Source: Massalongia carnosa
Lineage: Eukaryota
NCBI GenBank assembly: GCA_965645245.1
Contig: OZ287081.1
Coordinates: 310,001 to 374,000 of the forward strand
Direction of reading: 5' to 3'
DNA length: 64,000 nucleotides
The notes below the pieces were generated by a model. That model ran no database searches. It had not been told where the DNA came from and saw only the letters and a list, made by a program, of their open reading frames with translations. Position numbers and translations under genes: made by a program. Each line of letters begins with the position of its first letter. The first letter of the stretch is position 1. Below, in pieces: positions 6,794 through 49,751 of this stretch.

Positions 6794-6951
6794 GCTGAGA
6801 GAAGCCTTGATAGTAGACGTTGTATAGAGAAGTACCAGCGCAAGTATCCAGTCCCAAGTTGTCCGAGTTCCACCCAGTCAGAGTCCCATTCATCTCCCAT
6901 ATTCACCTCAATTCCTCCAACCTCCTCATCCTTACCTGAAGAGAAGTCAAG

Positions 6952-9756: not shown

Positions 9757-12700
9757 GCATGACCTAAAACTGCCCGGATCCACCAATCGAAAAAAATTGG
9801 CTGAGGCTCGCGAGTTACATGATACCCATGTAATATCAGGGTCTGGATCCATAAATACATCTATGCATGGGCCCTCCACCGTTTTCCCCAGACATGAATC
9901 TCTACCCATCCGCCCTGTCATCCGCCAACCCACGAGCAACTTCCCACCCATTCAGGAATTAGAAGAATGCATTGCTGGCCTTGGAGTCAAGCTAGGACCA
10001 CTAATTCCATCTGAGAAAGAACGGCTTCAGGTGCTACGATTACTTTACCAATATCGTCACCTGAACTCTGTAGACCTTACGGATCTTCCATCTACCGATC
10101 TGATTATCCACCGAGTCAAGCTAGTTCCGGGGACGCGACCCCACTCCGTCGGACAGAAACGATGGCCACCCCACAAAGAGTGGTGGCTCAGAAAACTCGT
10201 TCAGGATGGAGTCGAAGGAGGAATATATGAAAGAACAGACCTAGTGGACGGACGGCTATCACCATGGAATGCCCGGGCTGTCCTGGTTGACAAAGTAGAA
10301 AATCCCACTATGAAAGACGAGCCTAGAATGATTTTCGATTATTCCAGAGTTGTGGAGGAATTGCCAGGAGCACACATGCAGCTAATGGCCGGATGTCATG
10401 ATTATCTCTCAGACCCAAGACATGGATGTTTTATGACCGCTGACCTAAAACATGCATACCTGCTCGTTGTGGTTCATCCAGACGACCGGAAATATTTCTC
10501 CTTCACCATCCCGGGAATGGGCCAATTACAACCCACTCGGATGCAACAAGGGTCAATGACCGCCTCTTTTACAATGTCCGAATTGATGTGCAGAGCGTTC
10601 GGGCCCCTTCCAGAGGAACCATCATTGCTACAAGGAGAGTCCCCAGACTTTCCGCCACCTCTATCATTCTATCAGGATGACATTCTCGGTGGTCATTCCA
10701 CATATCAAACCGCATTTACATTCCTAAAAGATCATTTTTTTCCCCGGGTAGAGTGGGCCAAATTACGGCTGTCATTCAAAAAGTTATACTTATTCCAAGC
10801 GTCAGTAAAAGCCTTAGGCATGAGGCATGATGTCGGTGGACAGGTAAGAATCTTGGAGGAACGAACTGAGAAAATTATGAAATTTCCAACTCCAAAGGAC
10901 CAGACGGGAGTCCGGGCCTTCATTGGGACTATAGGCATCACACATCGCTGGGTGCCTAATTATTCAGAGCTTAGTAGACCATTGACTCGACTAACTGGAA
11001 AAGTGGAGTGGAGATGGGGAGACTCGGAGCAACTGGCCTTCGAAATTCTAAAAATCAAATGCACTATTCTCACAGCTATGTATGGCTATGATCACACATT
11101 GCCTGCGCATTTCTACATGGACGCCTCAATGAACGGAGGGGGTTTGGTCATTACCCAGTTCCGAGATGAAGGTGGAAAGCCCATAGAAGTTCCCATCCTA
11201 TACGATTCGATTACATTCAGTACCACGGAGAAGAGGTACCCCATATATAAGAAGGAGCTATGTGCACTGGTGAAGTTTGTCATGAAACATGATTATTTCT
11301 GCAAACATCCCATCAACATGACTGTGGTTCACACAGACCACAAGCCACTCGTGCACTTTCTGAAGTCTGATATCCACGAAGGTATCTATGGACACTGGGC
11401 CGATAAACTGAGGAGGCTGAATATCGAAATCAAGTACATTCCGGGTAAGCGGAACAAGGTAGCTGACGGATTATCCAGGACACTCTTCCTCGAGGAGGAT
11501 TGTTCTTCGGACCAAGCTGTGCAGGAAGCCATCAGCCGATTATCTGCTGATGGACCACAATGGATATGGAAGGATGGAAAAACTGGATATGAAGAGTTCC
11601 TAAAATCAATTAGTCCACAAGAACGTATGGAGGTCATAGACCACGGGTCCCTTGCGGGAGAGAATGTTTTTGCTTCTACACTAGCCTTGGAGGTCAGTGC
11701 CATGCCTGGATCAACCAGGCCTGATTCAACACTTTCATGGACAGATGCCTACTTATCCTCTGATTGGTTTGGGCGCGTGTATCGTATCTTGACAGATAAA
11801 CAACCCCAACTAAACTCGGGGGAATTTTCACGGTCCATGGACTATCGAGTGGACCCACAGACCGGTATACTCTGGAAGTACCACAAGGGTACTTACCTTC
11901 CTTGCATTCCTGAGACAAAAGTTTTGCAAGTACTAAGAGTCGCACACGATGAGGGTGGCCATTGGGCCAAACAGGGGACTCTGGCAAAGATCCGAGGGTT
12001 CGTGTATTGGCCATCCCAATCCACCGATGTGGAAAGGTACATCAGGGGGTGCTTGGAATGTGCAAAGCATGGACCAGCCACAAAGTCCCAACTACTTCAT
12101 CCAGTCCGTGTCCAGAGACCATTTCAGCTGATAGGATTCGACTTCATCGGACCACTACCTACATCCAAGAAAGTATACCTATACATATTCCACGTTCTGG
12201 AGTACTTCTCCCGTTTCTCCATCACTATTCCAAGTAAGACGGCAAATGCATCTGATGTGCTACCTGCCTTAGAGCAAATGTTCGTATTATACGCTAGACC
12301 TCAGGCCATATATTGCGACCGGGGACAACACTTTGAAAACTCCGAGGTAAAGAACTTCCTTTCAGAAAAGGGCATATCTTACTCGTACAGTCCGTCTGGC
12401 GCGTCCCAAAGTACTGGGATGGTAGAAATAGGGAATCGCTTGCTAGAGGACATCCTCCGGAAGACCCAAAGTGGGATATCCAAAGATTGGGAGGCCATCC
12501 TAGGGAGGTCCACGTACAATCTAAACGCTAGAGTGATTCATCATTTAGGGGCATCCCCAGCGTCCATCCTACTAGGAGTTGGTCCAGACACTCCCACCAT
12601 AGACCCCATTCTCCGATCGGTGCCCACACAATCAGTTTCCGCATGGATAGACCAGGTCCTGGATCCAGATCAACATCAGGCCATGGTGCGAAAGTTCATT

Positions 12701-13084
12701 AGTTATCGAGCGCAGCTCCACGATACCATTCAATCAAGATCAAATCAGAGGAAGGATTTGGAGAGAGCCCGATTCAATCGTGGTATCATCCAACACGAAT
12801 TCGCATCAGGGGATCTGGTCATGTTATTCCAAAAAACATCAGGGAAATTACAGCCCAGATGGCGTGGTCCATTCTATGTAGAAGGCTTTGGTGGAAGTCA
12901 TGGGACATCCTACACAATCCGTCAGATCAATGGGAGAAAAATAAAGGGAACCTTTCATGGCCATCATCTGAAAGAGTTTGTTGTTCGGACTGGTCGCCTG
13001 GCAAATCCATCCGACATACCACTACCACCTTTTCAAACTATTCGTGAAAGAAGGAGAGCTTTGAGAGGTGAGACAACTAGATAA
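9677..13084 (+). CDS. Pol: reverse transcriptase, RNase H, integrase
   Basis: RT motifs ADLKHAY and FYQDD; RNase H MDAS, KKEL, TDHKPL, NKVADGLSR; integrase H-H-C-C, FDFIGP, CDRG, GMVE; GPF module PRWRGPF. Confidence 0.97.
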   Translation: MMRTPTRGKTSQNSRMWCQYVFLTGPKHDLKLPGSTNRKKLAEARELHDTHVISGSGSINTSMHGPSTVFPRHESLPIRPVIRQPTSNFPPIQELEECIAGLGVKLGPLIPSEKERLQVLRLLYQYRHLNSVDLTDLPSTDLIIHRVKLVPGTRPHSVGQKRWPPHKEWWLRKLVQDGVEGGIYERTDLVDGRLSPWNARAVLVDKVENPTMKDEPRMIFDYSRVVEELPGAHMQLMAGCHDYLSDPRHGCFMTADLKHAYLLVVVHPDDRKYFSFTIPGMGQLQPTRMQQGSMTASFTMSELMCRAFGPLPEEPSLLQGESPDFPPPLSFYQDDILGGHSTYQTAFTFLKDHFFPRVEWAKLRLSFKKLYLFQASVKALGMRHDVGGQVRILEERTEKIMKFPTPKDQTGVRAFIGTIGITHRWVPNYSELSRPLTRLTGKVEWRWGDSEQLAFEILKIKCTILTAMYGYDHTLPAHFYMDASMNGGGLVITQFRDEGGKPIEVPILYDSITFSTTEKRYPIYKKELCALVKFVMKHDYFCKHPINMTVVHTDHKPLVHFLKSDIHEGIYGHWADKLRRLNIEIKYIPGKRNKVADGLSRTLFLEEDCSSDQAVQEAISRLSADGPQWIWKDGKTGYEEFLKSISPQERMEVIDHGSLAGENVFASTLALEVSAMPGSTRPDSTLSWTDAYLSSDWFGRVYRILTDKQPQLNSGEFSRSMDYRVDPQTGILWKYHKGTYLPCIPETKVLQVLRVAHDEGGHWAKQGTLAKIRGFVYWPSQSTDVERYIRGCLECAKHGPATKSQLLHPVRVQRPFQLIGFDFIGPLPTSKKVYLYIFHVLEYFSRFSITIPSKTANASDVLPALEQMFVLYARPQAIYCDRGQHFENSEVKNFLSEKGISYSYSPSGASQSTGMVEIGNRLLEDILRKTQSGISKDWEAILGRSTYNLNARVIHHLGASPASILLGVGPDTPTIDPILRSVPTQSVSAWIDQVLDPDQHQAMVRKFISYRAQLHDTIQSRSNQRKDLERARFNRGIIQHEFASGDLVMLFQKTSGKLQPRWRGPFYVEGFGGSHGTSYTIRQINGRKIKGTFHGHHLKEFVVRTGRLANPSDIPLPPFQTIRERRRALRGETTR

Positions 13085-13701: not shown

Positions 13702-14940
13702 TGCCTAATCTGGAAATTAATAAGCAGAAGACAAAAGAACCTCGATCGCAAATATTCAGATATCTCGGCAAATTCCAATACTCCCACTCCGAGTATCTGA
13801 ATGGCTTCATACCCTCGCATGCCCGAAAACGAATCAAAAGAAATCCTCCGCGTTCTACCCGTCTGAACACGATGCTCAGATAGATCATGGATCCTCGTGA
13901 GCCGATGTGATTGCGATAAACTATCGCTAACTCTCTAGGTCTCCTTCATATCTAATAGAGCACGCCCGCGTTCAAAAGCCGCCTTGGTCAAAGGCTTTGT
14001 CAGAATATCAGCTGCCATCTCGTTGATGGGAACATAGCTGATTTGGATAAGTCCATCCTCCACTACCTCGCGAATGTAGTGATATTGCACATCGATGTGC
14101 TCGTACGTGAGTGGTTTTCGGGGTTTCTGACGAGTGCAATGGCCCCTTGATTATCACACCGAAGTTCGATGGCTCCTCTCTCTCTAATCCCTAGTTGCTG
14201 TAGCCAGCGACCTGCCCAAACGAGCTGTTTTGAAGCCTGGCATTGCGAAACGTATTCGGCTTCAGTGATTGAGGTAGAAACAGTGCGTTGTTTCTTGCTG
14301 GTCCAGATGCATGCTGAATTTGCAAGAAGCAAAGTCATGCCATGTATGGATTTTCGATTTTCCGAGGAATCGGCATAAGCCGCATCCGCGTACCCTATGG
14401 GAGTGTTGCCTTTCGAACTAGGGTCATAAACTAGGCCTAAGTTTGCAGTGCCTTTCAAATACCTAATTACTCTATCCAGCGCAACTCGATGCTTTACACC
14501 TGGATCGTGACTGAATTGACTTAACTTGCCAATTGCAAAGACTATGTCAGGTCTAGTACTTGTCATGGCATACATTAGGCTTCCTATCCTTTTCTGATAC
14601 TTCAGTTGATCGGTCCTGAGTTCCGTGGGGTGGCGGCAGTCAGTGGTGCATATCCATCAATCGGAGTTGAAACTAAATGTGCATTTTTCATTCCATATTT
14701 CGAAATAAAGTTGTTGATGTATACTGAGTGATCTAGTGTTAGATTTCTAGATTTTCGATTCCTCCGCACTCGTATTCCCAGGATGTGATCCACTTCTTTC
14801 GAATCATACTCTCGTTTTAGTTGTGCCTTGACTGCATTGATGCGGGATATTTTGACAACAAAGATAAGAAGATCATCGACGTATACCGAGATAATGACGC
14901 CGGCTTGAAGATTTATGAACACACAATTGTCGGCTGAGAT
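13702..14940 (-). mobile_element. 5'-truncated, frameshifted Ty1/copia remnant (RT-RNase H, PPT, start of 3' LTR)
   Basis: YVDDLL, TRPDI, GYADA, SKKQRTVSTSITEAEY, CDNQGAI and ADILTKPL. PPT GGAGTGGGAG (13781-13790, minus) is followed by TATTGGAAT. Confidence 0.9.
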
Positions 14941-14942
14941 TG

Positions 14943-15494
14943 TGTAAAGGTAATCATCATAATAAGGTTGTGTAAAAGGATGTCCATTGAGACATGCGAG
15001 CAAGCTCGTCACAGCCAAAACAACCACCAAGACAATAAGGTCCTGCCTAACCCAGTTAGGCATAGTGTGGGGACTTAACTTATTATGGAGGTGTTTTCGT
15101 AGTATTGTACACGAAGTATCCCCACGCCTCGCCTCACCTCCCCTAGCTCGCCTGCCTAGTCTCATCTACCCAAGTGTTTCGGTGACAACGAAGTATTTGG
15201 GAGACCGAAAATACCAGGTAGTATGGGCAAGGTATGGAAGAAGAGCTTAGGTTGTGGATTGTCCTATCCTATATAGATCAATGATCAAGCACTTCAAAAG
15301 GGTAGCATTTAGTCTACCCTTTGACCCGACCCTACCTATTTGTACCTCTATTGTGACCATCACGTTGTGTAACCCCGTGGATCCCGTCTTCCAGTAGTGA
15401 ATGCCTGCTGGGAGAAGGTCTCCCCGTTTCACTATCAAGAGATATTCTTCTGACGTAAATATAAATTCACCATAGAGCTCATTGTTATCATACA
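14943..15494 (+). mobile_element. Possible LTR that truncates the copia
   Basis: TGTAAAG...ATCATACA with internal TATA-like CTATATAGA. Copia coding similarity stops at its left edge; no TSD found. Confidence 0.4.
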
Positions 15495-15945: not shown

Positions 15946-17223
15946 CTATTCTTTTTTATCTACATGCACCGCCGTTCGCCAAACCTTTCCCACACAATGC
16001 TCATCTAACAGTTCCAGCATGGCATTGCTCCCTACGTAAAACTGACTTGCCGTTTGATTGTTCGTCAGCTTCCAAAGCTTCAACTCCGCCGGCCTGGTCA
16101 TTCGCTCGATCTGCTGAGTAGAAGAGTGACTGACTGGGCCTATCAGCCATTGATAATCCTCCAAATACTTCAAATCATTAGGTATCTTCTGATCGGTTCT
16201 TCGACACGCCCACACGAATCGCCGCCACTCCTCCCCATAGAGCTCCTTTGCTGACGCGGTAAGATGCTGAGGCACGGCGACGTGAAGGATTTCGACGGGA
16301 ACCACGTTCCCGTCCACGAGTGCCTGTGCCCACTGCGCATACTTCCATGCCACTTCATAATTCTTAGTAAAATACACTCCACTAATTCTCTTAGAGAAGT
16401 CTCCAGGTGGAGTACTGCCAAGTGCGGCGAAATTCAGCTGTCCATCGGCCATGAACAATTTGTCAAGTCGTGGACGTGCAGCTCCCTTAAGCAGCATAAC
16501 GTGCCCTTCCAGTTGCTTAGGAGGATCATCGGCGATGGTCGCCAGTGTGGGCTGGGGTACGTTGAACATTCCAAGTTCCAGGTCTTTGCCCGCTTGACTG
16601 GAGACACGGGGAGGGATCGCGGGAGCAGGTTGCATGCTGAAAGAGTCATGAAAGGCTGGCTTGCTAGATTTGCGGCCGAGGGTACTCGTGGGTGGGGTTT
16701 GAATCACGCTGTCGAGAGTTCGAAGGAAGTCATAACGGATCTCCATCATCTCGTAAATCCACTGCTTGAGTGAGCCAGAAAGGCGCATTTCCATCACGTC
16801 GTTTTTCATGATGCGCGCTTGAAAGTTACTGCTCATCCCAATGCGCCTCATAATCTCGACCCAATCGTCGAGATCGGTGATGGCATTCCCTTGAATGCTA
16901 TTCACATAACGCTTTGCCGAATTTAGTATGCTGGCGCGATAAGGGAATTCATTCTGTCTCTCCAGGAATTGTTGCCATACTATCCCCGCGGTTGTCTCGT
17001 TGAGCTCGAGAAATCGCAATGTCTCTAAGCTTTCCAGTTCATCTGGGATTAGAACCGTGGCCTCGGAGTCAAGGGAATTCGCTGTGACATATGATGTGTT
17101 TGATATAGCCCGATATCCTTCATGTTGGCCAGCCTCTCCACGAGCACGAAGGATCTGAATAGATTGCAATGAAAGCACTTTAAGGCTTGAGCAAGACGAT
17201 GTAGAGGTAAGCGTGCCAGCCAT
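15946..17223 (-). CDS. ADP-ribosyltransferase-fold/DUF3990-like hypothetical protein, copy 2
   Basis: Paralogue of 4219-5496 with an open frame. Confidence 0.75.
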   Translation of the reverse strand: MAGTLTSTSSCSSLKVLSLQSIQILRARGEAGQHEGYRAISNTSYVTANSLDSEATVLIPDELESLETLRFLELNETTAGIVWQQFLERQNEFPYRASILNSAKRYVNSIQGNAITDLDDWVEIMRRIGMSSNFQARIMKNDVMEMRLSGSLKQWIYEMMEIRYDFLRTLDSVIQTPPTSTLGRKSSKPAFHDSFSMQPAPAIPPRVSSQAGKDLELGMFNVPQPTLATIADDPPKQLEGHVMLLKGAARPRLDKLFMADGQLNFAALGSTPPGDFSKRISGVYFTKNYEVAWKYAQWAQALVDGNVVPVEILHVAVPQHLTASAKELYGEEWRRFVWACRRTDQKIPNDLKYLEDYQWLIGPVSHSSTQQIERMTRPAELKLWKLTNNQTASQFYVGSNAMLELLDEHCVGKVWRTAVHVDKKE

Positions 17224-17344
17224 CCTATTAACAGCGAAAGTTGAACTGTTTGCAAAGCTCACAATCCAGTAATCTCGAAGACCTTCACAAGATCGATGAC
17301 AGAGCGCTTTGCAGAAGTAATTAGTACGTATATCACACACTTCT

Positions 17345-17553
17345 TGTTGAAATAGGTATATGACTATGGCTATATGACTATGTAATAATAAGTGTATGTA
17401 TAACCGTGATGTTAAGGATGAAGAGTGCTGTTCAACTGGTCACCTTCTGTTAAGCGAGGTGATCTTTATCTTATCTTAGGACTAGGCCTAATGCGGCTTC
17501 TACGGTTTCCTAGATGCTATGTTCATTGTACTGATAGGAGTTGGATATTCAAC
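17345..17553. mobile_element. Solo LTR, family B
   Basis: TGTTGAAATA...GGATATTCAACA, homologous to 6089-6269; no clean TSD. Confidence 0.7.
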
Positions 17554-29057: not shown

Positions 29058-30122
29058 AGCAGCCCTGGTGGTAGAAAGCTGCAGTGGATAAACGAAACAA
29101 ATATATGATTCATATTGATGTGCTAGGATCTCCGGTAGATGATCGGTTCTAGAAAATCCTTAGGATGTGCATATATGAACTGGGGAGCGATTGAAAATGA
29201 TGGGTTGTGCAGAATTTGGTAAGGAATATGGAACGAGGTGGGCAGAGAGCGTGATATAAAAGAAACTGGTAGGTGATAGGAGAGAAAGAAGCTTGGCATT
29301 TTGATATAGAATGCTAAGGATGAGTGAGGTGTGATATAAGAATAACGAGAAATAGTACCGTTACATTACTACCCACGCTACCATTTTGAATTTTTATACA
29401 TACTATATACGAAGAAGAAATTGATGGATAGTGGAAGATGTGCGAGATGGAAAGAGCAAGATGATGTGTAAGAATGGTTGGGAGTAAGGATTGACTTTTA
29501 AAAACGAGGAAAACTGTGGTTTGATGCGATTGAGGGTTGATGAATCCACAAGCAAAGATCAGCAACTCACTCAAGCACATGTAAGTCAAGATCAACATAA
29601 AGGTGAAAGTGAGGAGTTTATCTGTACTGTGTATACAAGATTATTTCAGGGTAGTATAAAAAGCAAGCACTCCTGGGCGACACACGTACGAGTACTCTAC
29701 CACGGCGGGTGAATGTAAAAATGACAACGTGTAGAAATAAATGTACGTTTAGGTTTTCCGACTTGTTAAGTGAAAGCGCAGATTTGATGTTCTGAAATAA
29801 CACCATATCTTATTCAATGATGTTGAATTCATGGTGATTTTTTTATGTGATTTTATTGTAGTTTAATATGATTTAATCATATGTAAAGGGGTGGGTGACG
29901 CGAACAAGATTTTGGGGTTGTCATTTTTTGGGAGGCTGTAAAACTCAGAGGTTTTCTATTTTCCATACCATTTAGCTGCCGCAGCCAATTAGTAAGCTGG
30001 CACATGACCAAATCTCGTAAATATTAATGTCGCGTCTTCCAACCGTAATTCTCATCCCCTGGTTATCCCTTATTATCACTTTTCTCATACCTCGCTGCTC
30101 TCATTTATTGAGGCTATTCAAG

Positions 30123-32390
30123 ATGTCTTCGTACTTAGATACCACCAAGCCCGAAAGCGACGTCGACAGTCAGCTAGATAGTCAGCTGGATAGTCAGCTC
30201 ACCGTCGCCAGAGGATCTTCTCGCTCCGCTTCGACCCCTATTTCCACTGTCTTGGCTCTACCTTCTCATCTGGTCTCGATGCGTCAGCTTGTCTTTGCAT
30301 TAGATGCACCAATAACTTGGACTGCGGATAATTATGCTTCATACTGGCCGTTTATGGACAACATCTGGGTGCATAATCACACGGAGCCTATTACCAAGAA
30401 GAGAACTCAAAAATCATATTGGTTTTGCAGACTTTGGAAGCAAGATGCTGACATTAAAAGTCAAGGTTCAGGACGACGTGCTAAACGAATGCGGTTAACT
30501 GATGCTTGCTCTATAAAGCTGGCTATGATCAAACAATTTGATGAGATCAATGAATTGTTGACGGTGACTTTGAGTCGTCACGTCAACAAGAAGCTTGACG
30601 ACTCAGTTAATCAGCTGCAACATAATCACATTTTGGAGGTTGTGGACAATATCAAAATCAACTCCGCCATCAGACTGACGGCTGGTAAAGAGGTGGCAAA
30701 AGGATATACCCCGGGAGACGTCAATCGAAACATGCAGGGCGTTAGATGGGAAGGGAATCTTGAAGCTTTGAAACAGGCCGGGGGGTCAAATTTCAACTTT
30801 CAAACCGTATATAATGCTGGAAGAAGCTTTAAAAAGCAGAATCCTGATGCACGAATTCAGGGAGCTAGGGAGTCATGGATTAATCAATTGAATAGCTGTT
30901 TTGATGCATTGCAGGCATTGGGTGAAGATGTTCTAGCTGCAAAGCTTGAAATAACTCGTCTCATTGATAGAGAAAGATCACATGCAATAGCATTTGCAAA
31001 AAGATCTCGGTTATCAGTATTGATGAAACGTGGACATCTGACATTGATGGACAGTACTCATAACACCAATCAGCTAAAATGGAAGTTATTTACATTGATG
31101 ATTCGTGACGAATGTGGAAGCTGGATTCCCGGAGCCCACATGCTGAGTAGTAACGAGGACGGTGACATTATAGGAGAGTTTCTTCGTCAGATTAAGCGAT
31201 GGTCTAGAGCTTGGAGACTTCGATACATTATCACCGACGATTCTGCAGCTGAACAGCGAGGGGTCAGTCTTGCATTTCGAGGGTTGATCGACGGGGAGAT
31301 GGAGGTTACTCATCTACTTTGTCGGACTCACTCCGAGCGTACCCTGAATCGAAAATTGGTCGGTCCCAATTGCAAAAATGCAAAAAAGCATTTGTATGAT
31401 GCTCTATATTTCAGAAAAACGAAGCTCGGATGCGATGATAGTCTCAAAAAGGCATTGGCAGCTGCCCCTGAAGAAAAACGTCAATATATAGATCGAGAAT
31501 GGGTGCAGACTAAATCCAAATGGGCTAATTACGCACGTCAGCATTCATGCATTTTACTGCAGTGCATGACGACTAATGCGGTAGAATCCTGGCACGCATC
31601 TATTAAAAAGCATGCTGACGGTGAGACTATTTCTTGAGCTTCATTCGTCATACTAATTAGTACTGTAGGTAAAGCGCATTTCATGACTTTTTCTCTGATC
31701 GGGGCTGCAAGCCATGTGATTCGAATCGGGGATCAATGGGAAAATCGAGCCCGCAGCGAAGAGGCTAATTTTCGTACTACTATGACTCCCGAATGTCAGG
31801 AATGCCCATATCTTCGAAAATTTCCCTATCCCGTGCAAATGCTCATAGTTGATCAATGGAAGCTAGCCGCTAGAAGTTTAGCAGACGGTGATGAGCCGGC
31901 AGGTGAGCTGCCTGATGAGCTAATCTGTCCTGTAGACTGTCTATTTTGGCGTCAGTATCAACTCCCATGCAGACACTTGTGGCACTATAACATCGTTTTC
32001 GACGCGTTTCAGGAAGTCAATTGGACAGTCTGGGCGGAGATGTTTGAGGATAGCGGCTTCGAGGTGTATGAAACGTCGACTAGGCTGGATTTTGATCATC
32101 ACGAGGAGGTAGAAAGATCGGATCGACATATGCTACAGATGAGAGAGGTTTTGGACGCAATTAAAGACAAATACCACGAAATAGCCGAGTACACCGCCGA
32201 ATGGACTGCCGAGGAAAGAAATCCACAAATAAAGCGATGGCTAGACTGGTTGGAGAAGTTGACTGGACCAATCAGAAGACGGGGGGTGGAGGAGGCCTTG
32301 CAGGAGTTGGAAGATGAGGAGATGACGCCGCTGGCGATGATGATGGCGGCGGAGGAGAGTAGGAATCGTCGGCGGGATGATGACGAATAA
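30123..32390 (+). CDS. MULE DDE transposase with SWIM zinc finger (intron 31621-31668)
   Basis: LMDSTHNTN, ITDDSAAE, LCRTH, TTNAVESWH and C..DC......LPCRH. A GTGAGA...TACTAAT...TAG intron joins the two ORFs in frame. Confidence 0.9.
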
Positions 32391-32924: not shown

Positions 32925-34262
32925 CAGTCCCATGTCAAAAGTTTCCGACTCTACCCGCGATTTTCTTGATTTCGCGTTTCAACCCCTCCAACCCATCAAC
33001 TTTGACCTCATCATTTCACCATGCCACGCACTACGTTGGCTTCAATTTCTGGTAATGAGCCTCGTAATACCGAATTGAATCAATTTCAAAGAGGAATGAT
33101 TATTGGAGCCCAGGCGTTGGGGCATGCACCGGCCGAAATTGCAAGACATTAAATGTGCCTCGAACCACCGTCATTTACACTCTTCAAAAGCACCCAGAAC
33201 GCAACAACGAAAAGTCCAAATCGCGATCGGGTCGGCCTGGAATATTTTCGGATCGCGATAGAAGACGTACCATCAAATTTGCACGAATCAATCCTCGCAT
33301 CACCTATGCGCAGCTGCGTACGGAGGCCGGGGTGCAATGCAGTCGATCCACTCTCTATCGGACGCTCAAAGACTACGGTCTAACAAACTGGCTGGCTAAA
33401 AAGCGGCCTTCATTGACGCCCGAGGTGGCAAAGAGGAGATTGGAATGGTGCTTGCTTCGGCGTGAGTGGACTTCTGAGCAATGGTCAAAAATTATATGGT
33501 CAGACGAGTGTTCGGTGGAAAAGGGGTCAGGAAAACAGCGTCAATGGATGTTCAGATTTCCGGAGGAAAAATGGAAAAAACCTATGATACAACCGTACGC
33601 CAAAGGCAAGGAGGTCAAGGTTATGGTATGGGGAGCTTTTTGGAGGAGAGAAAGGTCAGATCTTTACAAATTGGCCCGCGATTTCGAAGCAAAGAAGATG
33701 GGGTACTCCGCGAATTCATATTTGGAATTATTGAACGATAATCTGCTTGGAATTTGGGAACCGGGCCTCATTTTCATGCAGGATAATGCACTGATTCATA
33801 CTGCCAAAAAGGTGAAGAAATGGTTCGATGAAAACGGTATAACAATCATCGATTGGCCTCCTTATTCTCCTAATTTGAATCCCATCGAGCACGTTTGGTA
33901 TGTGCTCAAACAGCTCGTTTATCAAGTCAATCCGGACATCGATTCGGTGACTAGTAGTGATGATAAGGTCCACGAGGTACTTTGGAAAGCGTTGGAAGAA
34001 GCATGGGCCTTGATAGATGAGGAAATGTTGAGAAGTTTAATAGTGAGCATGGAAAGGAGGATTGAAGCTTGCATCCAATCGAAAGGATGGTATACGAAAT
34101 ATTAAAAATATATTTCTCAGCCCAAACTCGTTGCTAGAATATATGTAATCATCGTACGAAGTTTCAAGGCATCAAAATAAAAACTTGGTGGTTGATAATT
34201 CAAAGCAGTGGGGGGGGTAAAAAGTTGATGGGGGGCTGTCGGAAACTTTTGACCTAGTACTG
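32925..34262 (+). mobile_element. Tc1-like DD34E transposon
   Basis: TA TSD and 25-bp TIRs CAGT.....GTCAAAAGTTTCCGAC. Confidence 0.95.
33021..34105 (+). pseudogene. Tc1 transposase with a 1-nt frameshift near 33145
   Basis: WSDE, FMQDNA and SPNLNPIE (34 residues between D and E). The N-terminal HTH from ATG 33021 is out of frame with the rest. Confidence 0.85.
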
Positions 34263-34622
34263 TAGGAGTGTTGATCACCTAGTTTTTTTTGCGCCCGCAT
34301 TTTTAAAGTTCAAAGAGGTGTAGCCTACAAGCAGCAAGTCTGCCTAACTTTTCTCTTTTTTCCTTTCGAACCACCCCCAAATCCTTTCGACCTTCTCCCA
34401 GAGCCACGAACAGCGGTCAATAGAGCCTTCGTGATTGCCCTGCCAAATTTATGGATGATGGTTCATGGACAACCTTCCTCATGGCGGCACGAACGAAGGC
34501 TGTGTTGCGGCAAAAAGCGGCCCAAACACTTCCTCGGTGCTTAATTACCTCTAAACAGATCTTACTCTTTCTTTCTCTCACTATTTCTTCGTCCTCGTAG
34601 GGCCACGTCTGATCCGAAGACA

Positions 34623-35561
34623 ATGACGACAACTTTTCATCGCGCCCCTTGCTCGTTGCTTATTTCGATCGCTCTCGCCTTCGCTTTTATGCTCACTTTC
34701 CTTTTTACCTTCCCTCCTCGAACATGGCGTCATAATCCCGACGTGCGCAACAAACCTACGGAAACATCATCGAGCGCTTCATCCGCAGATAAAAAGGCTT
34801 ATGCCATCTTCCTCGCGGGTAATGATTCCCTCTATTTCCGTGCTACTCGTACCCTTTTATTTCAGCTGCTACACGACCCGGACACCCGCGATCCAAACAA
34901 TCGACCTGTGGTGATAATGACGAGTTCTACCGTGCCGCAAGAAACTAGAAAACAACTAGCGCGGGAAGGAGCTACGATCGCACCGGTGGAGGCAGTAAAA
35001 GGAATCAAGGGCGTTGGCGAAGACAACCGCTGGCGCGAGCTATATACCAAACTTCGTGTTTGGGAAATGGAGGAATATGAGCGCGTGCTCGTGCTGGATT
35101 CGGATCAGCTTCTCGTTAAGCCCATTCATGGGATCTGGGATGACCCGAATGCGATCAACAATAGCGGCCTTGCGGCGGTTTCCGATTGCGTGGTGGGACA
35201 TGATAGTCCTCCGGAGAACACAGACTACCTGAATGGTGGACTGATCATGGTAACCCCTTCCAAAGCGAGGTTTCAAGAACTTATTGCCACAAACTCCAGT
35301 CTATTTGACACCAATTATATGGAACAAGGCTTGTTGAACTGGGTTTATCGCCGGGATGGACCCATGCCGTGGGCTGCCCTGGACCATAAATGGACCACAA
35401 ACTGGCCTTCGCTCAAGGATATAACTGTAGGAAAGGTCCACGCGGTGCATGATAAGTTTTGGAGAGCTGATAACAAGGATTGGATCGATAGGGAGTTGGT
35501 AGAAATGTGGTGGCGTGCATGTGGCCGAATGGAGGGTTATTGGATGGCAAAAGAGTTCTAG
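34623..35561 (+). CDS. Glycosyltransferase family 8, type II membrane protein
   Basis: N-terminal TM anchor; YTKLRVWEMEEYERVLVLDSD (DxD), YLNGG, MEQGLLN and VHDKFW. Confidence 0.92.
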   Translation: MTTTFHRAPCSLLISIALAFAFMLTFLFTFPPRTWRHNPDVRNKPTETSSSASSADKKAYAIFLAGNDSLYFRATRTLLFQLLHDPDTRDPNNRPVVIMTSSTVPQETRKQLAREGATIAPVEAVKGIKGVGEDNRWRELYTKLRVWEMEEYERVLVLDSDQLLVKPIHGIWDDPNAINNSGLAAVSDCVVGHDSPPENTDYLNGGLIMVTPSKARFQELIATNSSLFDTNYMEQGLLNWVYRRDGPMPWAALDHKWTTNWPSLKDITVGKVHAVHDKFWRADNKDWIDRELVEMWWRACGRMEGYWMAKEF

Positions 35562-36674: not shown

Positions 36675-37709
36675 ATGGCCGCTAATAGATCAATAGGACG
36701 TAATGTTCAGCTATACGATGCCAAAGATCGGGTAACACTACTCGGTGGTTTGATCCTGACCAACGGTGTGACCAAGTCCAATTTCTACTCGATGGTGGAA
36801 ATATTTCTACTATTTCAGTCCTCCTTTTTGATAGAATGCGAGACCTCTGCTACACTAGAGAGAAATGAAGAACCACTGCCTCACGGGGATTACTATGTCA
36901 TTGGTCCGCCTCTGACCCTGATCCTGGTGGGGCTATTGATTTATAGTCTATAGGGTCCTTCACCGTCAGCAATGAGCCCTTCCTTACCCGCACGATTTCA
37001 TTGTCCACAGGCAGTCGTCTTGGGTCATTCCGCGACGAAGTTCGGAGGCGAGATGGCAGATGTATCATCACAGGCAACGTAGCACTGGGTGCGTACCGTA
37101 ATCATTGGACGGGATTCGAGGCCGCACACGTCTTTCCTCTCGCCTATGAAGGTCACTGGGTCCAGCACAATTTTGCTCGTTGGGTTACTATTCCGGCTGC
37201 TAACGGAGAGACCATTAATTCAAAGCAAAACGGGCTATTGTTAAGAGCAGATGTTCATGGGCTCTTTGATAATTATGATATTTCAATCAATCCTGACGTA
37301 TGACCACACACGCCTTCTCGTAATTTCCAGCTACTAACAATCATAGGATAATTATAAAGTCGTTTGTTTTGTGGATGATGGAAATGACATCGCAGGCAAA
37401 TTTCTTGATGAGCAGTTTCGGAATGATCCCGATAGACCACCTGACGAACTTCTTCGTTGGCATTTTCGACAAGCTATATTTGCAAATATGAGGGGTGCTG
37501 GAGAGCCAATCTTCGAAATAGATTTTCCTCCTGGCTCGGATGTTCTGGGTGAGATACGTGGGGGCTCAAAGGCCGCGGAGCGAATGGAGTTTGAGTTGTT
37601 CAGCCGTTTCGCAGTAGGTACTACTATATTGGCTGGCATTATAGCAGTGAAGTTTCAAATACTAACCAAGAATGTGCCCCAGTTGCACACAGCCCCTCAG
37701 CAGCAATAA
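36675..37709 (+). CDS. HNH endonuclease-domain protein (HNH_2-like)
   Basis: RDGRCIITG, FEAAHVFP and INSKQNGLLLRADVHGLFD. Introns 36904-36953 and 37298-37346, and possibly 37614-37682. Confidence 0.85.
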
Positions 37710-38954: not shown

Positions 38955-39275
38955 TTGACCAGAGAACTGGTAGGTGCGACAGCTTCGGATCAAATGTTCC
39001 AACAATCTAAAAGAAACGGCAGGAGAACGGTCGCGCCCTCCTATGAAAAGACGTTCAGATGGGTATTGGACCCCATCTTCGGCAAAGAAATTCGGCAATT
39101 GGCTACGATAACACAACGGGGGGGGGGGGGGGAGGTTCGTGCCTAAGGCAAGTGCTGGTGGGACTGTACTACATAGTATGTACTCCACCAACATCATATC
39201 ATACCATACGACCCGACCTGACCTTGGCACTCTTTCCTACCGATGCACGAACAGGCAAAGAGCCGGATCCGCTGA
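38955..39275 (+). pseudogene. Possible NACHT/NLR N-terminal remnant
   Basis: Fragments YEKTFRWVLDP, FGNWLR, GLYYI and a broken GK-AGS in different frames resemble the pre-Walker A region of fungal NACHT proteins. Confidence 0.35.
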
Positions 39276-39844
39276 GTGGTGGTTAGTTCTCTATCTCATG
39301 GCTGTTGTTGTTATTGTTGTTCTTGGTCTGGTTATGGGACCAAGACGGTGGGGGGGTTGAAGGATATCTTTGTTTTTTTTGTTTTAGAAAAAAATTTGAG
39401 ATTGGGGGTTTTCGGCGCTGGGAGTACGAACAAGGGGATTTGGAGAAATGTAGGATCCGTCTAGGTTTGTGGTATGTAGGTGTCACGTAAAGTTTTTTTT
39501 TGGTTTTTTTCTTTGGACAAGACATGGAGGAGAGAGCGAGAAAGTTTGTGGAGGAGACCAAGGGTTTTCACCATTGTGGGTTGGGGGGGAGGGGGGAGAA
39601 TTGCATGCATGCAAAACGAAATGATTACTACAAGGTAATGTACAATGACTACGGGAGAGACAATCCCAAGAGCCGAAATGCAACGAATGTGCCCCCCCCC
39701 CCCCCCAAAGCTCAGGAATAAGCGATCCAGCTCCCACGCCGTCTCTCCCATCACCGCATCGTCGCGGCTCGGCGGGAAAAATCGCTAGATGCTTGCGACT
39801 CCCGCCCGGCCGCGAAACCCCACATAGAGGGTTTTGATTCCCCG

Positions 39845-40446
39845 TCAGCGGAGAATCCTGCGGATCGCTCGCCGTAAGGCGCCCGGAGGCTTGGGGGTGG
39901 GGGCTACCTTCAGCATCGAGACCAAGCGGCCGTCTGGATGGATGGTCATCGTCGCCGCCCTTTCTTCCACCCTGCCGTCATCCTCCATCAGGCAGTAGGC
40001 GAGCGGCGCCGGCTTACCGTTGGCTTTCATGCGGCCGAGGTTGAGGGCCAGAAGGGGTTGGCCCATGTTGATGCTTTTCCCGGGGGGGGCGAGATACGTG
40101 TAGTCTTCCTCCGTCGGTGCGTTGTTCTTGTTGCCGAGTCGAAGATAGAATGGGAACGTGGCGACCAGGGTGATTGTTATGAGGTTTAGGTCTGGCCGAA
40201 CTTGGTCCACTTTGCAGTTCAGCGGAGCCCTTAAGATCCCGTTGGGTATTTGGAGAGCGATGGCATCCATGCTGTATGGGAAGCGCCCAACAAAGTTCTG
40301 GACGTCTTGCACAAAGCTATTGAGGCTCTCCGAAGGAGCATGGCATCCCGCAACTTCTGTTTGGATTTCGTCAGCAGCTGCAACTGGGAGAGGAGGACTC
40401 AAGGCGAGGATATACCGATAGTTTTATTATCCGAAGCCTCTGCCAT
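39845..40446 (-). CDS. 180-aa protein resembling PTS EIIA(Glc) (duplicated hybrid motif), one intron 40357-40415
   Basis: A GTATAT...GCTGAC...ACAG intron links ATG 40446 to the ORF. Segments DAIAL..NGILRAPLNCKV, FYLRLG and PGKSINMGQPLLALNL parallel EIIA motifs. Confidence 0.65.
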
Positions 40447-41138
40447 GATGCCTTTTTTACGTGTTAAACTCTATGAGTTGAGGGGTAGGCTGTGTAATAT
40501 TTCCAAGAAATAAGTTATATATTGGATGATGGACGACGAATGGTGGGTATTTGGATAAAGAATTATAGACGTGAAGAGGGAGTTGCGAGTCTTCTTATGT
40601 CTTCTCGGCATTTTTTTGCCAGCTTGGATTTTTGCAGGTGAATATCAGATAGCAAAGGGAACTAAATCATGGAAAGATAGTGAAGATTTTTTGAACAAGG
40701 ATAGAAGGTTGACATAGAAGATTTCATCAAGAAACTGGGCAGCAGCCTCAGAGGGAATGTGAAAGTGGAGGATCTTGCGTGAATGACACGGAGGAGATAG
40801 AAGAGGTATCTCTGTTAAACGATACAAGGATGTTGGGGTGTATGAAGGGCGAAGGCAAAAAAAATATACATAGACATCAAAGGTCGTCAAGATATTGCAC
40901 AGTCCATTCTATAATTCAGGCCATCTTTAAGGGAAAACTCTAGAGCGCCCCTTCATAATAAAACACATAATGCTACATTTAAAAAGGCCATAACAATCTG
41001 CAGAAACTCCCATACAAGACACTGTATTGTTGTTCCACATTGGAGAAAAATCAGGCTTGCCGTAATGTTTAAACATCTCAATCGTAAAGGAACTCTCCAT
41101 CGACAAGATCACAACTGTTAAACGTAACGGAAATCCCC

Positions 41139-41939
41139 TCAGATCAAGGAGCGGTTACCACGACGCCAATTTTGGAGTTGATGGTCATAGTTTCTTCGCG
41201 ATTCCGTGTTGCAAAGTATGTCGGCTGCCCAGCCAACTTGCTTCGCCTCAACGTCAATTTGCAAGAGATCGGCTGTGGAAAGGCCTTCGGACCGTTTAAG
41301 CTTGTCGGGATGAGTTTCGACGCGCTTTCGCCTGGCTGCTCTTCCGATGGTTACAGGCGAGCTATTGGGTTCGACGCCTAGAATGGCGTAATGATCCGGC
41401 GGTTCTTCCTCCCACACAGAGATATGCCTCGTCGGTTCCTCGGTGGACTCGTCTGTGCCATACTCTTCTCTCCTGTTGTGCGGCTTCTGTTTGTCCTGGC
41501 CAAAGGTTGAGTTTTCCTTTCTCCTCTGGGAATTCTCATCCGCTGCACAATTTGATCCAAATTCCCCATGGAAGAAGAAATGGTGTTGCTGTCGATATGG
41601 GTCCTTGCTTGGGAGATTGCCGTCACAAAGGCCGCAATGACAGATGCCTACGCTAGGGTGTGCTATTTTCATATGAATCAACCGGGTTACAGGCTCGGTG
41701 AAGCATATCTCGTGATAAGAACAGGTCAGATAAGGATGAATCCTTTCCCAATGGAACAGACGTCCAGATGCCGAGTCAAATTCCGGTAAGTGGTAGCATA
41801 GGGTGCATGAAAAGTGGTCAGGGGCTGTCGTCAGGTGTCTTGCACGATCCGCGCTTGTTCGGAAGGTGATACTGCATTTGCCACACCAAAGACCAGCTGC
41901 TTCGGCATTAGCGGTCGCTTCTTCCGATGACTTTTCCAT
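41139..41939 (-). CDS. C2H2-like zinc fingers plus C-terminal J-domain
   Basis: CGKC..F......RH and further Cys/His clusters; DHYAILGV...HPDKL...R..YD. Confidence 0.8.
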   Translation of the reverse strand: MEKSSEEATANAEAAGLWCGKCSITFRTSADRARHLTTAPDHFSCTLCYHLPEFDSASGRLFHWERIHPYLTCSYHEICFTEPVTRLIHMKIAHPSVGICHCGLCDGNLPSKDPYRQQHHFFFHGEFGSNCAADENSQRRKENSTFGQDKQKPHNRREEYGTDESTEEPTRHISVWEEEPPDHYAILGVEPNSSPVTIGRAARRKRVETHPDKLKRSEGLSTADLLQIDVEAKQVGWAADILCNTESRRNYDHQLQNWRRGNRSLI

Positions 41940-42765
41940 CGGATGTTTGGTTCGATTGGCCGGTATACCTTACGAGGCCGTTGATGTGAATTCTGATGTG
42001 TACCAGTTCTCATGTATTTAGACGATGCCTTGTATCGCAAATCGAAGGTATATTTATATATATCATAGGTTTGGATATGTTGACTTACCTGTGTTGGACC
42101 ACAACGAAGCTGTTGTTCATAACAAAGGATTGGCTCTTTTGTTACTCGCTTTTCTTGATTGAACATTCTTGAACAAGAAACGTGCTCGGTGAGAATCGAA
42201 GACAGGAAAAGAAAATGGTCAACACATCTCCGTTCACCATCATTCATCATCACTTCAAAGGCGCATCTCTTTAAATTCACATATCAAGCAACACGGACCG
42301 TTGCAAAATCACAAAGGAAAATCAAGCTCACCAAGCCCCATCACTCGAGCGTCATCACCATCAGAAACAATTTTGCCGGCATCAATGACAGGAGCCATTT
42401 CCCACAACACAACGCATTCCCGAAACTCTCCAGGACGGTTTGCTAGGGGCCTATCTAAATCAGAGCGCCCATGTACCTAGCCCCGATACCTGATCATTTC
42501 TGATTCAGGTGTTCGGAACTCTTGCACGTTTATCCATCCGTAGAATCCGCAGATATCCAAGAACGTGAACTTTTCTAGTGACAAGTAGAGTAGATACACG
42601 ATGCGATGGGAAAAAGCTTGACGACTGACGAGACACATATGTGCCGACAACTCCAGCACTAAACAAGACGAGAGAAGGTACTCTGTACTATGGAAGACTT
42701 ATAGAGAACACAAGAGGCTAAACCGGCATTTCGTGTTATTTTTTTGTTAGAAAGAAGCAAATATC

Positions 42766-44357: not shown

Positions 44358-45732
44358 GGGCCAAAGCTGGTAGCCAAATAAGTCAGATGTCGTGAATGAG
44401 ATGGTAGATAAATGGGATGGAAGGATCAGAAACGGGACATGAACACTCGGTTGCTGGTACTGGTGCTGTTGCCTTGTTCTCCGCATTCGTCCAGTCCAGA
44501 CTCGAAAAGCTTTCGTGAACCAAGACCAACATATGTACATGGATAGTTGTGGGCTTGTCTCGCCTTGTTGGTTGTGAATCAATCATAGCAGACCACCAAA
44601 TCACATCTCCCCCGCACGCCAAGTACCTACACACCTCCCTATGTAATCATGTAACTGCATATCCCCTGAAAACAACCCCTCCATACCTAGCTCTCCCGCT
44701 CACCAAGTCACATTTCGAAGTCCTTACCTCCCTATGCAGTTTACATATTCCATGAAACCAACCCGTCCATCCACCTAACCCCCATCACCCATCACTTCCC
44801 TACTTAAGTTCTTGGCGCGGACGGAAAGGGGAGATCTAGGTCCACTTGGCCTGACAGCTGATCACCAGCAGCGGGGGGTTCTGATTATGAACGGGTGTTT
44901 CGCTTGGCGTTGGCGGCTTGAGAGAGTGAAATTGTGTTTTTGGTTTCCTTTTTCCGAGTCGCTGATTGGCTTGGTTACATGGTGTAGGGAGGCATCGGGT
45001 TGCAGAGGAACAAATTGATCGGGAATCTGTGTCCAATGCCATAGGCTTCCCTGAACAGGATATGAATCGTGAGTTACAGTTTAAGAAGAATTCCTTGATC
45101 GGTCAGAGGCTAAGAGAGAGATATTAGATACGGTCACGATTTCAACAATCCCCCGTGTGTGCTAGGAACAGATTTCTGAGGTGTTTGCTTCGGATATCTT
45201 TCTTTCTTGTTGTCTGGATTACGAATTGGCAATTCTTGAACGGCCCTTTGAAGTAATTGAACTCTTCTTCGTAATGTGCTTGTAGTGAGAAAACTGTAAT
45301 TCCACCTGTAGATAAAGAGTAGATAGTTAGCCGTAATGCCCTGAGATACCCAAACCAGCCTTCTGAGAACTTCAAAACATGTAGTGTTTTCAAACCGATT
45401 GACTGGTCTTGCAGAGAGCCCGAATACAATGCCTAAATTTCGAAGGATATTTTCGAGGTCGAGAGGCGTGTACATACATGATGGTTGTCTCGCTCGATCT
45501 CCAGCTTTCTGCAATATTTCGGCAATGCTTGCATCGTCCTAACACTACAGACGATGAACGCAGCCGTCGTCAACTCCCCGCAAGGACAGGCTTGGTTGCG
45601 GCGCGGCCAAATATATCGATAATAAATCAAAGGGTCTGAAAGCGTGTGATGATGCGAAGAAGACTGTTCACTTTACTGTGAATATAGTTCTTGTTGACAG
45701 AGTTTCATTCCACGTGTTTGGATAGCCACATC

Positions 45733-46641
45733 ATGATTCCTCGGGATCAGGAACCACTTATTAACCACAATCCTTCTCTCCAACGCTACTATGGCACTCT
45801 AGAATCGAAAATTGGCTATTGGCTTCTTCTAGGAGGCACGCAGCACTTCGGGTACTATGATGTGGATACCTACTGGCCCTTTCCCATCAACGGAGCCCTG
45901 AGAGCAATGGAAGACCATCTTTTCGACTCCTTTAGGGTCGCCGACGGCGCTGAGGTGCTCGACGCGGGGTGCGGTAGTGGCTACGTCGCTATGCATATGG
46001 CGCGAAAGGGCCTTCGCGTGCAAGGTATCGATGTCGTCGATCGTCTGGTTCAAAACGCACGTCGAAATGTGGCGGCGCAAGGGCTCGAGAAGGCGGTCAC
46101 CATCCGCAAAATGGATTACCACCATCTCGATAGTTTCGCCGGCGAATCGTTTGACGCTGCGTACACGATGGAAACTCTTGTTCATGCGACGGACCCTGAA
46201 CAAGCAGTGCGCGAGTTCTACCGCGTGCTTCGACCGGGAGCAAGGATGGCCTTGTACGAGTACGACCACTGCGACCTCAACACGGTACCGAGAAACATCA
46301 GGGAACACATGGAACAGGTGAATCAATACGGAGCCATGCCCGCCAATGTCCGATTTGAAGAGGGGGTTCTGCCGCACATATTGGAGGAGGCTGGCTTTGA
46401 GAATGTCGAGGTGAGGGATTTGTCCACGAACATCCGCCCCATGTTACGACTCTTCTTCGTGCTTGCATATTTGCCCTATATCTTGGTGAAGTTCTTGGGG
46501 CTGCAGGCCTGGTTCGTGAACACAGTGGCCGGAGTGGAGGGATATCGGGGCAGGCATCTATGGCGATATACCGTGGTCACTGCCAGAAAGCCTTTGGATG
46601 GAGAATCGGACATCGTTCGTGAAGGCAAGAAGGAGCAGTAA
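45733..46641 (+). CDS. Class I SAM-dependent methyltransferase (sterol C-methyltransferase-like)
   Basis: QHFGYY, VLDAGCGSG, ESFDAAYTMETLVHA and EFYRVLRPG. Confidence 0.93.
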   Translation: MIPRDQEPLINHNPSLQRYYGTLESKIGYWLLLGGTQHFGYYDVDTYWPFPINGALRAMEDHLFDSFRVADGAEVLDAGCGSGYVAMHMARKGLRVQGIDVVDRLVQNARRNVAAQGLEKAVTIRKMDYHHLDSFAGESFDAAYTMETLVHATDPEQAVREFYRVLRPGARMALYEYDHCDLNTVPRNIREHMEQVNQYGAMPANVRFEEGVLPHILEEAGFENVEVRDLSTNIRPMLRLFFVLAYLPYILVKFLGLQAWFVNTVAGVEGYRGRHLWRYTVVTARKPLDGESDIVREGKKEQ

Positions 46642-48288: not shown

Positions 48289-49751
48289 TCAACGCGGTCC
48301 GTTCTCTAAATCGTGCGCATAATGTCGAGAGATGGATCCACGCGAGATCCCCCTTGCATGAACCTTCATGGGCCCTCCAAGTTCCACCGACGGATAGTCA
48401 ATGCTGTGCGCATCCATCTCAATGTTATTTCCCTTTAGATTCCGGGAATCGTCATCCATGTCCCCCACGTCGTCCCAAGGAGACACCGGGTCCAGGGCAG
48501 GAGGCGGCTTGGACGCAGCGCTCCCGCCCTTGCGGGATGAGGAGATGTAGGTGCTGAATTGGGACTTGATAATGGGGGCGAGATGGCGCACAAGTTGCGG
48601 CATGACAGGCATGCAGCCGCAGATTATCCCGCTTGCGATTTCCGCGTCCCTAAGTCAGACGTTAGCGGTTATGATATCAGGGGTTTGGGGAGCGAAAACT
48701 GACGACCAAAAAGCGAGTGGGATCAACTCGTACGTAAGATCGTGTTTGCCGACAATTCTGAAGGTGGAAACGGAGCGTAGGATACTTGTTATACATGCGC
48801 TGACAGAAATCAGGCCAGCTTCGAGTAGGGATTTCAATGATATAGCTCCACTCACAATATGCCCGTCGCAAAAATGATTGATATACCAATTTTGCGTTTC
48901 AGCTGCATTTGTAAAGCCGAGATGCAAAATAGGGGTATCATCAACATTGCGATGTCTGACGTGATGTTGATCAACGAGGAAGCAATTAGGAGCGCAGAAA
49001 TATTAACGCAGTGTCCCGGGGTCTGAGGCTCCCAGATCTTTTTCCTAGGGGTGCAATAGAATATAGCTGTTAGGGTGTAGGCCGAATAGTAGAGGAAGTT
49101 GAGCCAGTTGACGAATTGAATGACGTAGTAAGCCGTCCCCGTTTTTAGAGGCACAAATATTCGCATGAATTGCAGCATTATCGATAGTTTCACGAAATAT
49201 ATCACTGGCCCGTTGAAAATCTCTTTCGCATTCACCGCCTGTAAGTTGTTAGAATTCAAACCCGGCGTGAATCGTAAAGGGCTTGCCTGCGCATATATCC
49301 TGACTTGCTCAATCGGCACATTCCACTGATGAATCCCCGCCCCGTTACTGAACGCCACGAAGTCAATCGCAAGGTAGCCTATTGATCCAAGCTAGTAGCA
49401 GTTCTTATTAGCTTCCAAAATCATTGTGTTGTCAAAAACAATTACGAAGGGCAAAAGCAGATCGTACCCATGCGATGAACGAAGTATCTATCAATTAACG
49501 TTGTTGGCATCACTTGCACATAAGACCCCACATTGAGGCGATCACTTACAGTCTTCCCATCCGTGAGATTTGATAAGAATTATCTTTGTGTACATTCGCA
49601 GAAAAACGAGGATAGTTGGAAAGATTAGGCACATTGTTAATGTGAGCAGCCATTCTCCGTGTAAAGACTCCGGGTTCACAAAGTTTGGTATGACTCCAGG
49701 AGGAGGTGGCAAGCCTCCCACCGTGTGCGTAGCATTGGAATGCTGCTCCAT
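48289..49751 (-). CDS. PTH11-like (fungal rhodopsin-domain) integral membrane protein, multi-exon
   Basis: PPPPGVIPNFVNP, LRMYTK, GAGIHQW, KLSIMLQFMRIF, CTPRKKIWEP..PGHC, NITSD and EIASGIICGCMP. Confidence 0.9.

Follow-up and report, generated by a model that had tools for sequence, protein, structure and literature searches.

Genomic setting and gene models

The window, that is, the whole stretch of 64,000 nucleotides that was analysed, is fungal and rich in transposons, and it carries on its minus strand a probable small gene whose product bears a weak likeness to bacterial EIIA(Glc) (Table 1). The best named relatives of the neighbouring methyltransferase are found in lichen-forming ascomycetes, with Sclerophora amabilis first at 69%, followed by Peltula, Caeruleum, Pleopsidium, Acarospora and Umbilicaria, and the contigs across the neighbours are continuous in two runs. 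At the level of sequence, the setting appears to be that of a fungus and not of a contamination. Among the 78 ORFs of at least 110 aa in the window, none belongs to the PTS families EI, HPr or EIIB/C. Starship cargo was also considered and set aside, no matching family being present among the 78 window ORFs. Within the 64-kb window the gene region is single copy, and neither paralogues nor repeat copies of it were found there.

Table 1. Features of the window, with positions counted from its first letter
Feature	Position	Strand	Basis
Gypsy-type retroelement, apparently intact (gag zinc knuckle, RT, RNase H, integrase)	6940-13081	+	Pfam
RVT_2 fragment	14605-15165	-	Pfam
MULE transposase	30021-31634	+	Pfam
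Tc1-type transposase	33068-34102	+	Pfam
Weak GT8-like ORF	34545-35558		
Stop codon TGA of the gene	39845..39847	-	
Main coding exon (P0001 frame, 170 aa)	39848..40356	-	open frame, codon usage, intact in the 98% relative
C-terminal extension with no EIIA counterpart, residues 150-170	39848..39910	-	alignment overhang
EIIA(Glc)-like core, P0001 residues 32-117	40007..40264	-	PF00358 and hhalign
Arg73 codon CGA, column of the phospho-acceptor His90	40139..40141	-	alignments
Asn58 codon AAC, column of EIIA(Glc) His75	40184..40186	-	alignments
Met30 ATG, alternative intron-free start (141-aa product)	40268..40270	-	start context; all synonymous changes downstream
Predicted 59-nt intron GTATAT...CTGAC...ACAG	40357..40415	-	sequence only
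Predicted exon 1: ATG, 9 codons and 1 nt (MAEASDNKTI)	40416..40446	-	start context; 2 substitutions among its 31 bases in the relative
DnaJ-domain gene	41142-41969	-	
Methyltransferase	45688-46638		
Fungal rhodopsin-domain gene	48855-49391		

Several other features of the region were noted in passing. In the ORF of the DnaJ-domain gene, the DnaJ domain lies near the C-terminal end and the N-terminal part is rich in Cys and His; the same gene may have an additional exon in the ORF at 41834-42283. At 36947-37300 (+), 2.5 kb from the EIIA-like gene, a 118-aa ORF contains a clear HNH_2 endonuclease domain (E 2.1e-16). Two ORFs of 439 and 497 aa, at 4222-5538 (-) and 15949-17439 (-), respectively, have weak DUF3990 matches (E 2.6e-4 and 1.6e-4) that lie at corresponding places in the two; both probably belong as paralogues to one uncharacterised family, which is possibly repeat-borne. 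On the 3′ side of the gene there are poly-G/poly-C tracts at 39118-39135, 39583-39598 and 39692-39709, at which short high-depth contigs of all four runs end or match, X4 joining 39135 to 39576 and 39709 to 39118. These joins are probably an assembly effect of low-complexity sequence. To the left of 39003 the X5 contig continues with unlike sequence, and this break marks a structural difference between two lineages beside the transposon-rich part.

The open reading frame placed by the first-pass annotation at 39845..40446 was confirmed on the minus strand, running from an ATG at 40444-40446 to the TGA at 39845-39847. In the ORF list of the window it appears as an open frame of 192 codons from stop to stop, 39845..40423 (-), of which P0001 (window:39848-40357:-, 170 aa) represents the frame of the main exon. 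Before Met30 of P0001 the frame has no ATG at all. When the 59 nt of 40357-40415 are taken out, the ATG exon is brought into frame with the long ORF, and the in-frame joining of 10 and 170 residues gives the spliced product of 180 aa that had been claimed, with an intron that is itself a prediction. The predicted intron has GT..AG ends and a CTGAC branch site, with the branch A located 14 nt from the 3′ end. Although it is plausible as an intron, its earlier description as a canonical fungal one does not hold: the donor GTATAT is atypical in having no G at +5, which is the usual donor consensus, and there is a second in-frame AG acceptor at 40378. Moreover, the ATG at 40444-40446 and the Met30 ATG have equally good contexts, both with A at -3 and G at +4. 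Thus, the sequence allows two gene models equally, one spliced, with a product of 180 aa, and one without splicing, which starts at Met30 and gives 141 aa. An X4 contig is unspliced over 40317-40487, and the splice joint was not seen in the contigs of 4 runs; among the 6 runs listed there is no RNA run, and neither observation has any bearing on splicing or expression.

At the C-terminal end, residues 150-170 are first Pro-rich and then form a basic stretch, in which a helix (158-169 or 159-169) is predicted by both AF2 models with low to moderate confidence. The 3′ end of the gene is overlapped in another frame by a 164-codon frame at 39483-39977 (-), which has no family and a poor codon score and is probably due to chance.

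Likeness to the EIIA(Glc) family

The resemblance to EIIA(Glc) proposed by the first-pass annotation was upheld as a profile likeness over the core with no rival family, but it stays below the Pfam threshold. At E ≤ 10, PF00358 is the only Pfam family matched: residues 32-117 of P0001 fall on profile positions 30-115 of 127 at E 9.4e-5. The 22.5 bits of this match fall short of the gathering cut-off (27.2 bits), and the whole 192-aa frame reaches 22.2 bits. The three blocks that the first-pass annotation had aligned with E. coli Crr proved to be collinear and ungapped when Crr was taken from NC_000913. By BLASTP, P0001 and Crr align over 92 residues with no gap, with 16% identity and a pairwise E of 9e-4.

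For comparison with a wider family, a set of 20 EIIA sequences was assembled. Six of them are Crr, NagE and BglF of E. coli and three orthologues of Crr; the other 14 are domains encoded on plasmids of Bacillota, Deinococcota and Betaproteobacteria. Against this set, hhalign gave a probability of 86.7%, E 4.3e-6 and a score of 40.4 over 89 ungapped columns (query 31-119 on template 49-137), and the best of 200 shuffles reached a probability of 2.8% and a score of 20.1. In hmmsearch with an HMM of the same set, P0001 scored 9.0 bits, a value reached by none of 2000 shuffles, the maximum of which was 7.8. A narrow EIIA profile of 6 sequences gave an hhalign probability of only 31%. In the Atlas language-model feature search, the top match was 0.93 with 181 of 256 features in common, and 29 of the 30 matches belonged to the PF00358 set; when PF00358 was left out, one unnamed Bacillota cluster at 0.90 came up and no coherent rival family. 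BLASTP, MAFFT, hmmsearch and hhalign all agree on one register, which is ungapped throughout.

Further EIIA diversity was drawn from 23 loci in 17 of 151 Pseudomonadota genomes. A scan of genome contigs for EIIA yielded, among the best 80 of 569 matches, only near-identical Crr orthologues, and in a protein search with Crr all of the matches listed had at least 85% identity. With P0001 as the query, NCBIfam gave nothing at E ≤ 10, and phmmer over 1.84 billion representatives returned neither an EIIA protein nor an orthologue; 3 phmmer matches were rejected, being tandem-repeat proteins in which summed repeats inflate the score. The PDB phmmer search gave only a lysyl-tRNA ligase at E 0.18, and tblastn in 7.3 Gb of plasmids gave 3 weak matches, one of them inside a Deinococcus ptsG gene (E 7).

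As a control on Pfam itself, the 78 window ORFs of at least 110 aa were searched, and 20 of them had a family at E ≤ 0.01. By our reading, these 20 are plausible genes or transposons, and none is found among the frames overlapping or antisense to them. Since the ORF was picked for its EIIA likeness, the E-values overstate how surprising the match is. In summary, the likeness to EIIA(Glc) found in these alignments is real but weak and is more than chance, and the assignment of the product as most like the EIIA(Glc) family (PF00358) is supported.

In the BLASTP, hhalign and MAFFT alignments, the columns of His75 and His90 (numbering of mature Crr; H76 and H91 from Met1) hold Asn58 and Arg73, so that the replacement of the two histidines seen in the first-pass annotation is borne out. 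In alignment A3, which consists of P0001 and 21 bacterial domains, both of these columns hold His in at least 90% of the bacterial domains. The family motifs are changed as well, with DVPD..F becoming DVQN..G, GDG becoming MDA and GIDTV becoming GNKNN. Among the 23 columns conserved to at least 90% in the 21 bacterial domains, 17 differ and 6 are kept (P8, V19, P45, G75, G93 and G99), the kept positions being mostly structural Pro and Gly; at a conservation of at least 80%, 8 of 33 are kept. P0001 is 13-21% identical to its bacterial counterparts in A3 and 15-19% in alignment A2. Beyond the profile-matched residues 31-119, the C-terminal strands have a plausible MAFFT alignment. On the N-terminal side, residues 1-30 and exon 1 have no detectable profile likeness, and in length the spliced model could roughly accommodate the N-terminal strands of the fold.

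It had been suggested that such a protein would mimic dephospho-EIIA. This idea fares badly, for the strongly conserved columns are mostly gone, those of DVPD..F and GIDTV included, and so changed a protein is a poor fit to a dephospho-EIIA mimic binding bacterial or bacterial-like EIIA targets. Because both histidines and most of the motifs are replaced and there is no PTS partner gene nearby, the protein would be unable to act as a phosphocarrier.

As for the fold, AF2 run on the single sequence gave a pLDDT of 43, at which the Foldseek matches are meaningless. Run on A3, it gave a pLDDT of 69.9 and a pTM of 0.63, with 70-91 in the core and 51-61 at the ends, in a model that inherits its fold from the EIIA alignment. 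With this model, Foldseek lists seven EIIA(Glc) structures first, 1GPR being at the top (E 1.6e-5, TM 0.61/0.65), a result that is circular because the model was built on the EIIA alignment. That is to say, the A3-based model suggests compatibility with the EIIA fold and is not a proof of it.

The most serious alternative to homology with EIIA(Glc) is that the gene is a lineage-specific orphan, either arisen de novo or too diverged to be placed, whose EIIA likeness came about by chance or by convergence on a beta-rich composition; the gene would then be real, and its family and bacterial origin would be wrong. In favour of an orphan are the want of any relative in two large protein searches and in JGI metagenome contigs, the sub-threshold Pfam match and the empty NCBIfam result, the loss of most conserved columns, the selection effect in the choice of the ORF and the absence of fold support independent of the EIIA alignment. 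However, three methods (Pfam, Atlas and hhalign) lead to one family, and in one register; the shuffle controls are clean; the overlapping and antisense ORFs of the window have no Pfam match at E ≤ 0.01 by our reading; and the ungapped match extends over nearly the whole domain core and not over a short motif. The orphan is therefore considered unlikely, with an appreciable chance of being right.

The coding frame and its alternatives

A relative of the region was found in the X5 contig, from a run labelled lichen metagenome, which is 98% identical over 39003-42200 with 70 substitutions. In this contig there is no indel in the CDS, the frame is open, and the ATG, GT, AG and CTGAC are kept, with 2 substitutions inside the predicted intron. 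Between the window and X5, 12 codons of exon 2 are changed, 7 synonymously and 5 non-synonymously (P 0.027 by simulation for at least 7 synonymous changes). The 141 codons from Met30 to the end differ synonymously in 7 cases and non-synonymously in 2 (simulated P 0.0038), so purifying selection acts from Met30 onward. Upstream of Met30, all 5 changes are non-synonymous, namely 3 in the 29 codons of the main exon and 2 in exon 1, with no synonymous change in either. The sole other frame with a similar count is the antisense frame sharing third positions (8 synonymous, 5 non-synonymous), which according to the ORF list is not open over the region.

The composition of the frame points in the same direction. 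Under a codon-usage model trained on four window genes, the gene frame has a score of +43.5 bits, the best of the six, with the other five at +17.6 or less, and its GC contents at the three codon positions are 0.61, 0.44 and 0.72 (GC3 0.72). From Met30 onward, a coding gene is likely on the strength of these sequence patterns, and the first 40 residues of the spliced product are an unproven prediction.

A second alternative is that a bacterial EIIA gene was transferred and is now in decay: its frame would still be open only by accident, its expression and use would have ceased, and drift would have removed the catalytic residues. The lost histidines and motifs, the transposon-rich region and the N-terminal part with non-synonymous changes only would agree with decay, and so would the substitution density, which in the CDS (2.35%) is no lower than in the 3′ flank (2.61%). 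Against a relic, on the other hand, there are the synonymous excess from Met30, a frame that is intact in two lineages, host-like codon usage and the strong GC3 periodicity, and decay is accordingly judged improbable.

Even less probable is that no gene exists here and that the 192 codons are a chance open frame in GC-richer fungal DNA. By our own estimate, about 0.6 such stop-to-stop frames are expected per 64-kb window at 50% GC, and the 164-codon frame that overlaps the gene has no family. In addition, two large protein searches (a word-index search and an exhaustive phmmer search) returned no product of this frame, and yet the neighbouring methyltransferase, in its own protein search, gave a 98%-identical Logan-derived product. 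A chance frame, however, is opposed by the selection, the codon usage and their specificity to the one frame, as well as by the family signal in Pfam, Atlas and hhalign.

A place in another branch of the hybrid-motif fold, as an M23/LytM peptidase or a biotinyl/lipoyl carrier, is hardly credible: LytM/M23 domains come up in Foldseek only after the EIIA structures, from E 0.04 and with the circular model, whereas no match to such families, which the first-pass annotation had wanted looked for, was found in Pfam at E ≤ 10 (M23/LytM, PF01551; biotinyl/lipoyl, PF00364), the Atlas neighbours include no biotinyl/lipoyl family, the Atlas search without PF00358 shows neither, and none of the motifs used for that comparison, HxxxD and HxH for M23 and a lipoyl-type lysine, is visible in the sequence.

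Origin and comparison with known systems

The PTS, with its EIIA(Glc) domain, is known as a prokaryotic system, and a search of the literature at the level of abstracts found no description of a fungal EIIA homologue. The first-pass annotation had taken the gene as horizontally acquired, a claim that finds no backing in a donor or a fungal orthologue, neither of which was found: the search for orthologues gave no relative in the word-index or the exhaustive phmmer protein search, and in JGI metagenome contigs 104 pattern matches yielded 0 confirmed relatives. Since the nearest named proteome has only 69% identity even for a conserved enzyme, the absence of an orthologue says little about the age of the gene. 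At 13-21% identity, a phylogeny with bacterial EIIA would amount to noise. The host-like codon usage, together with the possible intron, argues against a recent transfer or contamination. A role as a secreted antibacterial or symbiosis factor, also suggested earlier, does not agree with the predicted product, which has no hydrophobic N-terminus from either start, so that secretion is unlikely. The earlier proposals on mechanism, domestication as a regulator among them, find no support in the analysis.

The best explanation of the whole, held with a little better than even confidence, is a real fungal gene with a diverged, His-less EIIA-like core that is non-catalytic and of old bacterial origin. 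According to this explanation, the locus would hold a single-copy, lineage-restricted gene of a lichen-associated ascomycete, encoding a small intracellular protein that is 141 aa long if translation starts at Met30 and 180 aa long from the spliced start. The core of this protein would be a very diverged homologue of the beta-sandwich domain of bacterial EIIA(Glc) (PF00358), the fold being deduced from the alignment, and if the protein is functional, it would most likely serve as a non-catalytic binding module. Outside this case the family is prokaryotic, so the likeliest origin would be an old transfer from a bacterium to a fungus, after which the gene gained an intron and adapted its codons.

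A bolder account holds that the gene of a bacterial PTS phosphocarrier was taken up by a lichen-forming or lichen-associated fungus, gained an intron and host codons, was stripped of its relay residues and has been kept under selection as a eukaryotic binding or regulatory module; in this complete form it is decidedly doubtful. If it were true, the module may act on the sugar and polyol handling of the fungus or on bacterial partners in the thallus, and it would give eukaryotes a first working example of a domain derived from the PTS. A selected, His-less EIIA-like gene in a symbiotic fungus would be a small and clean case of inter-kingdom domain capture and re-use, and it would add to the few His-less EIIA-like proteins found here in bacteria. 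Its present value is that of a lead, namely a sub-threshold homology in a predicted orphan gene.

Among known systems, the closest are EIIA(Glc)/Crr and the IIA domains of glucose-family PTS permeases (PF00358; 1F3G, 1GPR and 2GPR), with which the fungal protein shares a collinear and ungapped core match, a similar size and the structural residues P8, P45, G75, G93 and G99; the alignment-driven, and hence circular, model superposes on their structures at TM 0.57-0.65. Unlike them, P0001 has Asn for His75 and Arg for His90 and has lost DVPD..F and GIDTV, its host is a eukaryote, an intron is predicted in its gene, the ORFs of the window include no EI, HPr or EIIB/C, and its C-terminus carries an extra basic tail.

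Degenerate forms that have lost His residues also occur in bacteria, judging from two stand-alone EIIA-like ORFs of Pseudomonadota. One of them, L114 (1423-1923 (-), 166 aa), scores 92.5 bits to PF00358; in it TNHAF is replaced by LDYAV and VHFG by IKYG, after which comes GNNT, so that a basic residue and GN stand where the fungal protein has them too; the other, L115 (1429-1839 (-)), scores 63.8 bits and keeps only the second His. Like the fungal protein, both are small and single-domain, with one or both His columns replaced, and they may represent a non-phosphorylatable EIIA subfamily. In contrast to it, they are bacterial and clearly above the Pfam cut-off, and BLASTP of L114 and L115 against P0001 found no likeness (E 3.5 and 21), which gives no ground for taking them as its source.

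Finally, catalytically dead LytM/M23 domains such as those of EnvC and NlpD, which have the duplicated hybrid fold, act as binders and activators. They differ from P0001 in being periplasmic, bacterial and of a different family, which has no Pfam match to it. Nevertheless, as a functional analogy only, they present a domain of the same fold class that, deprived of its catalytic residues, exerts its effect through binding to another protein.
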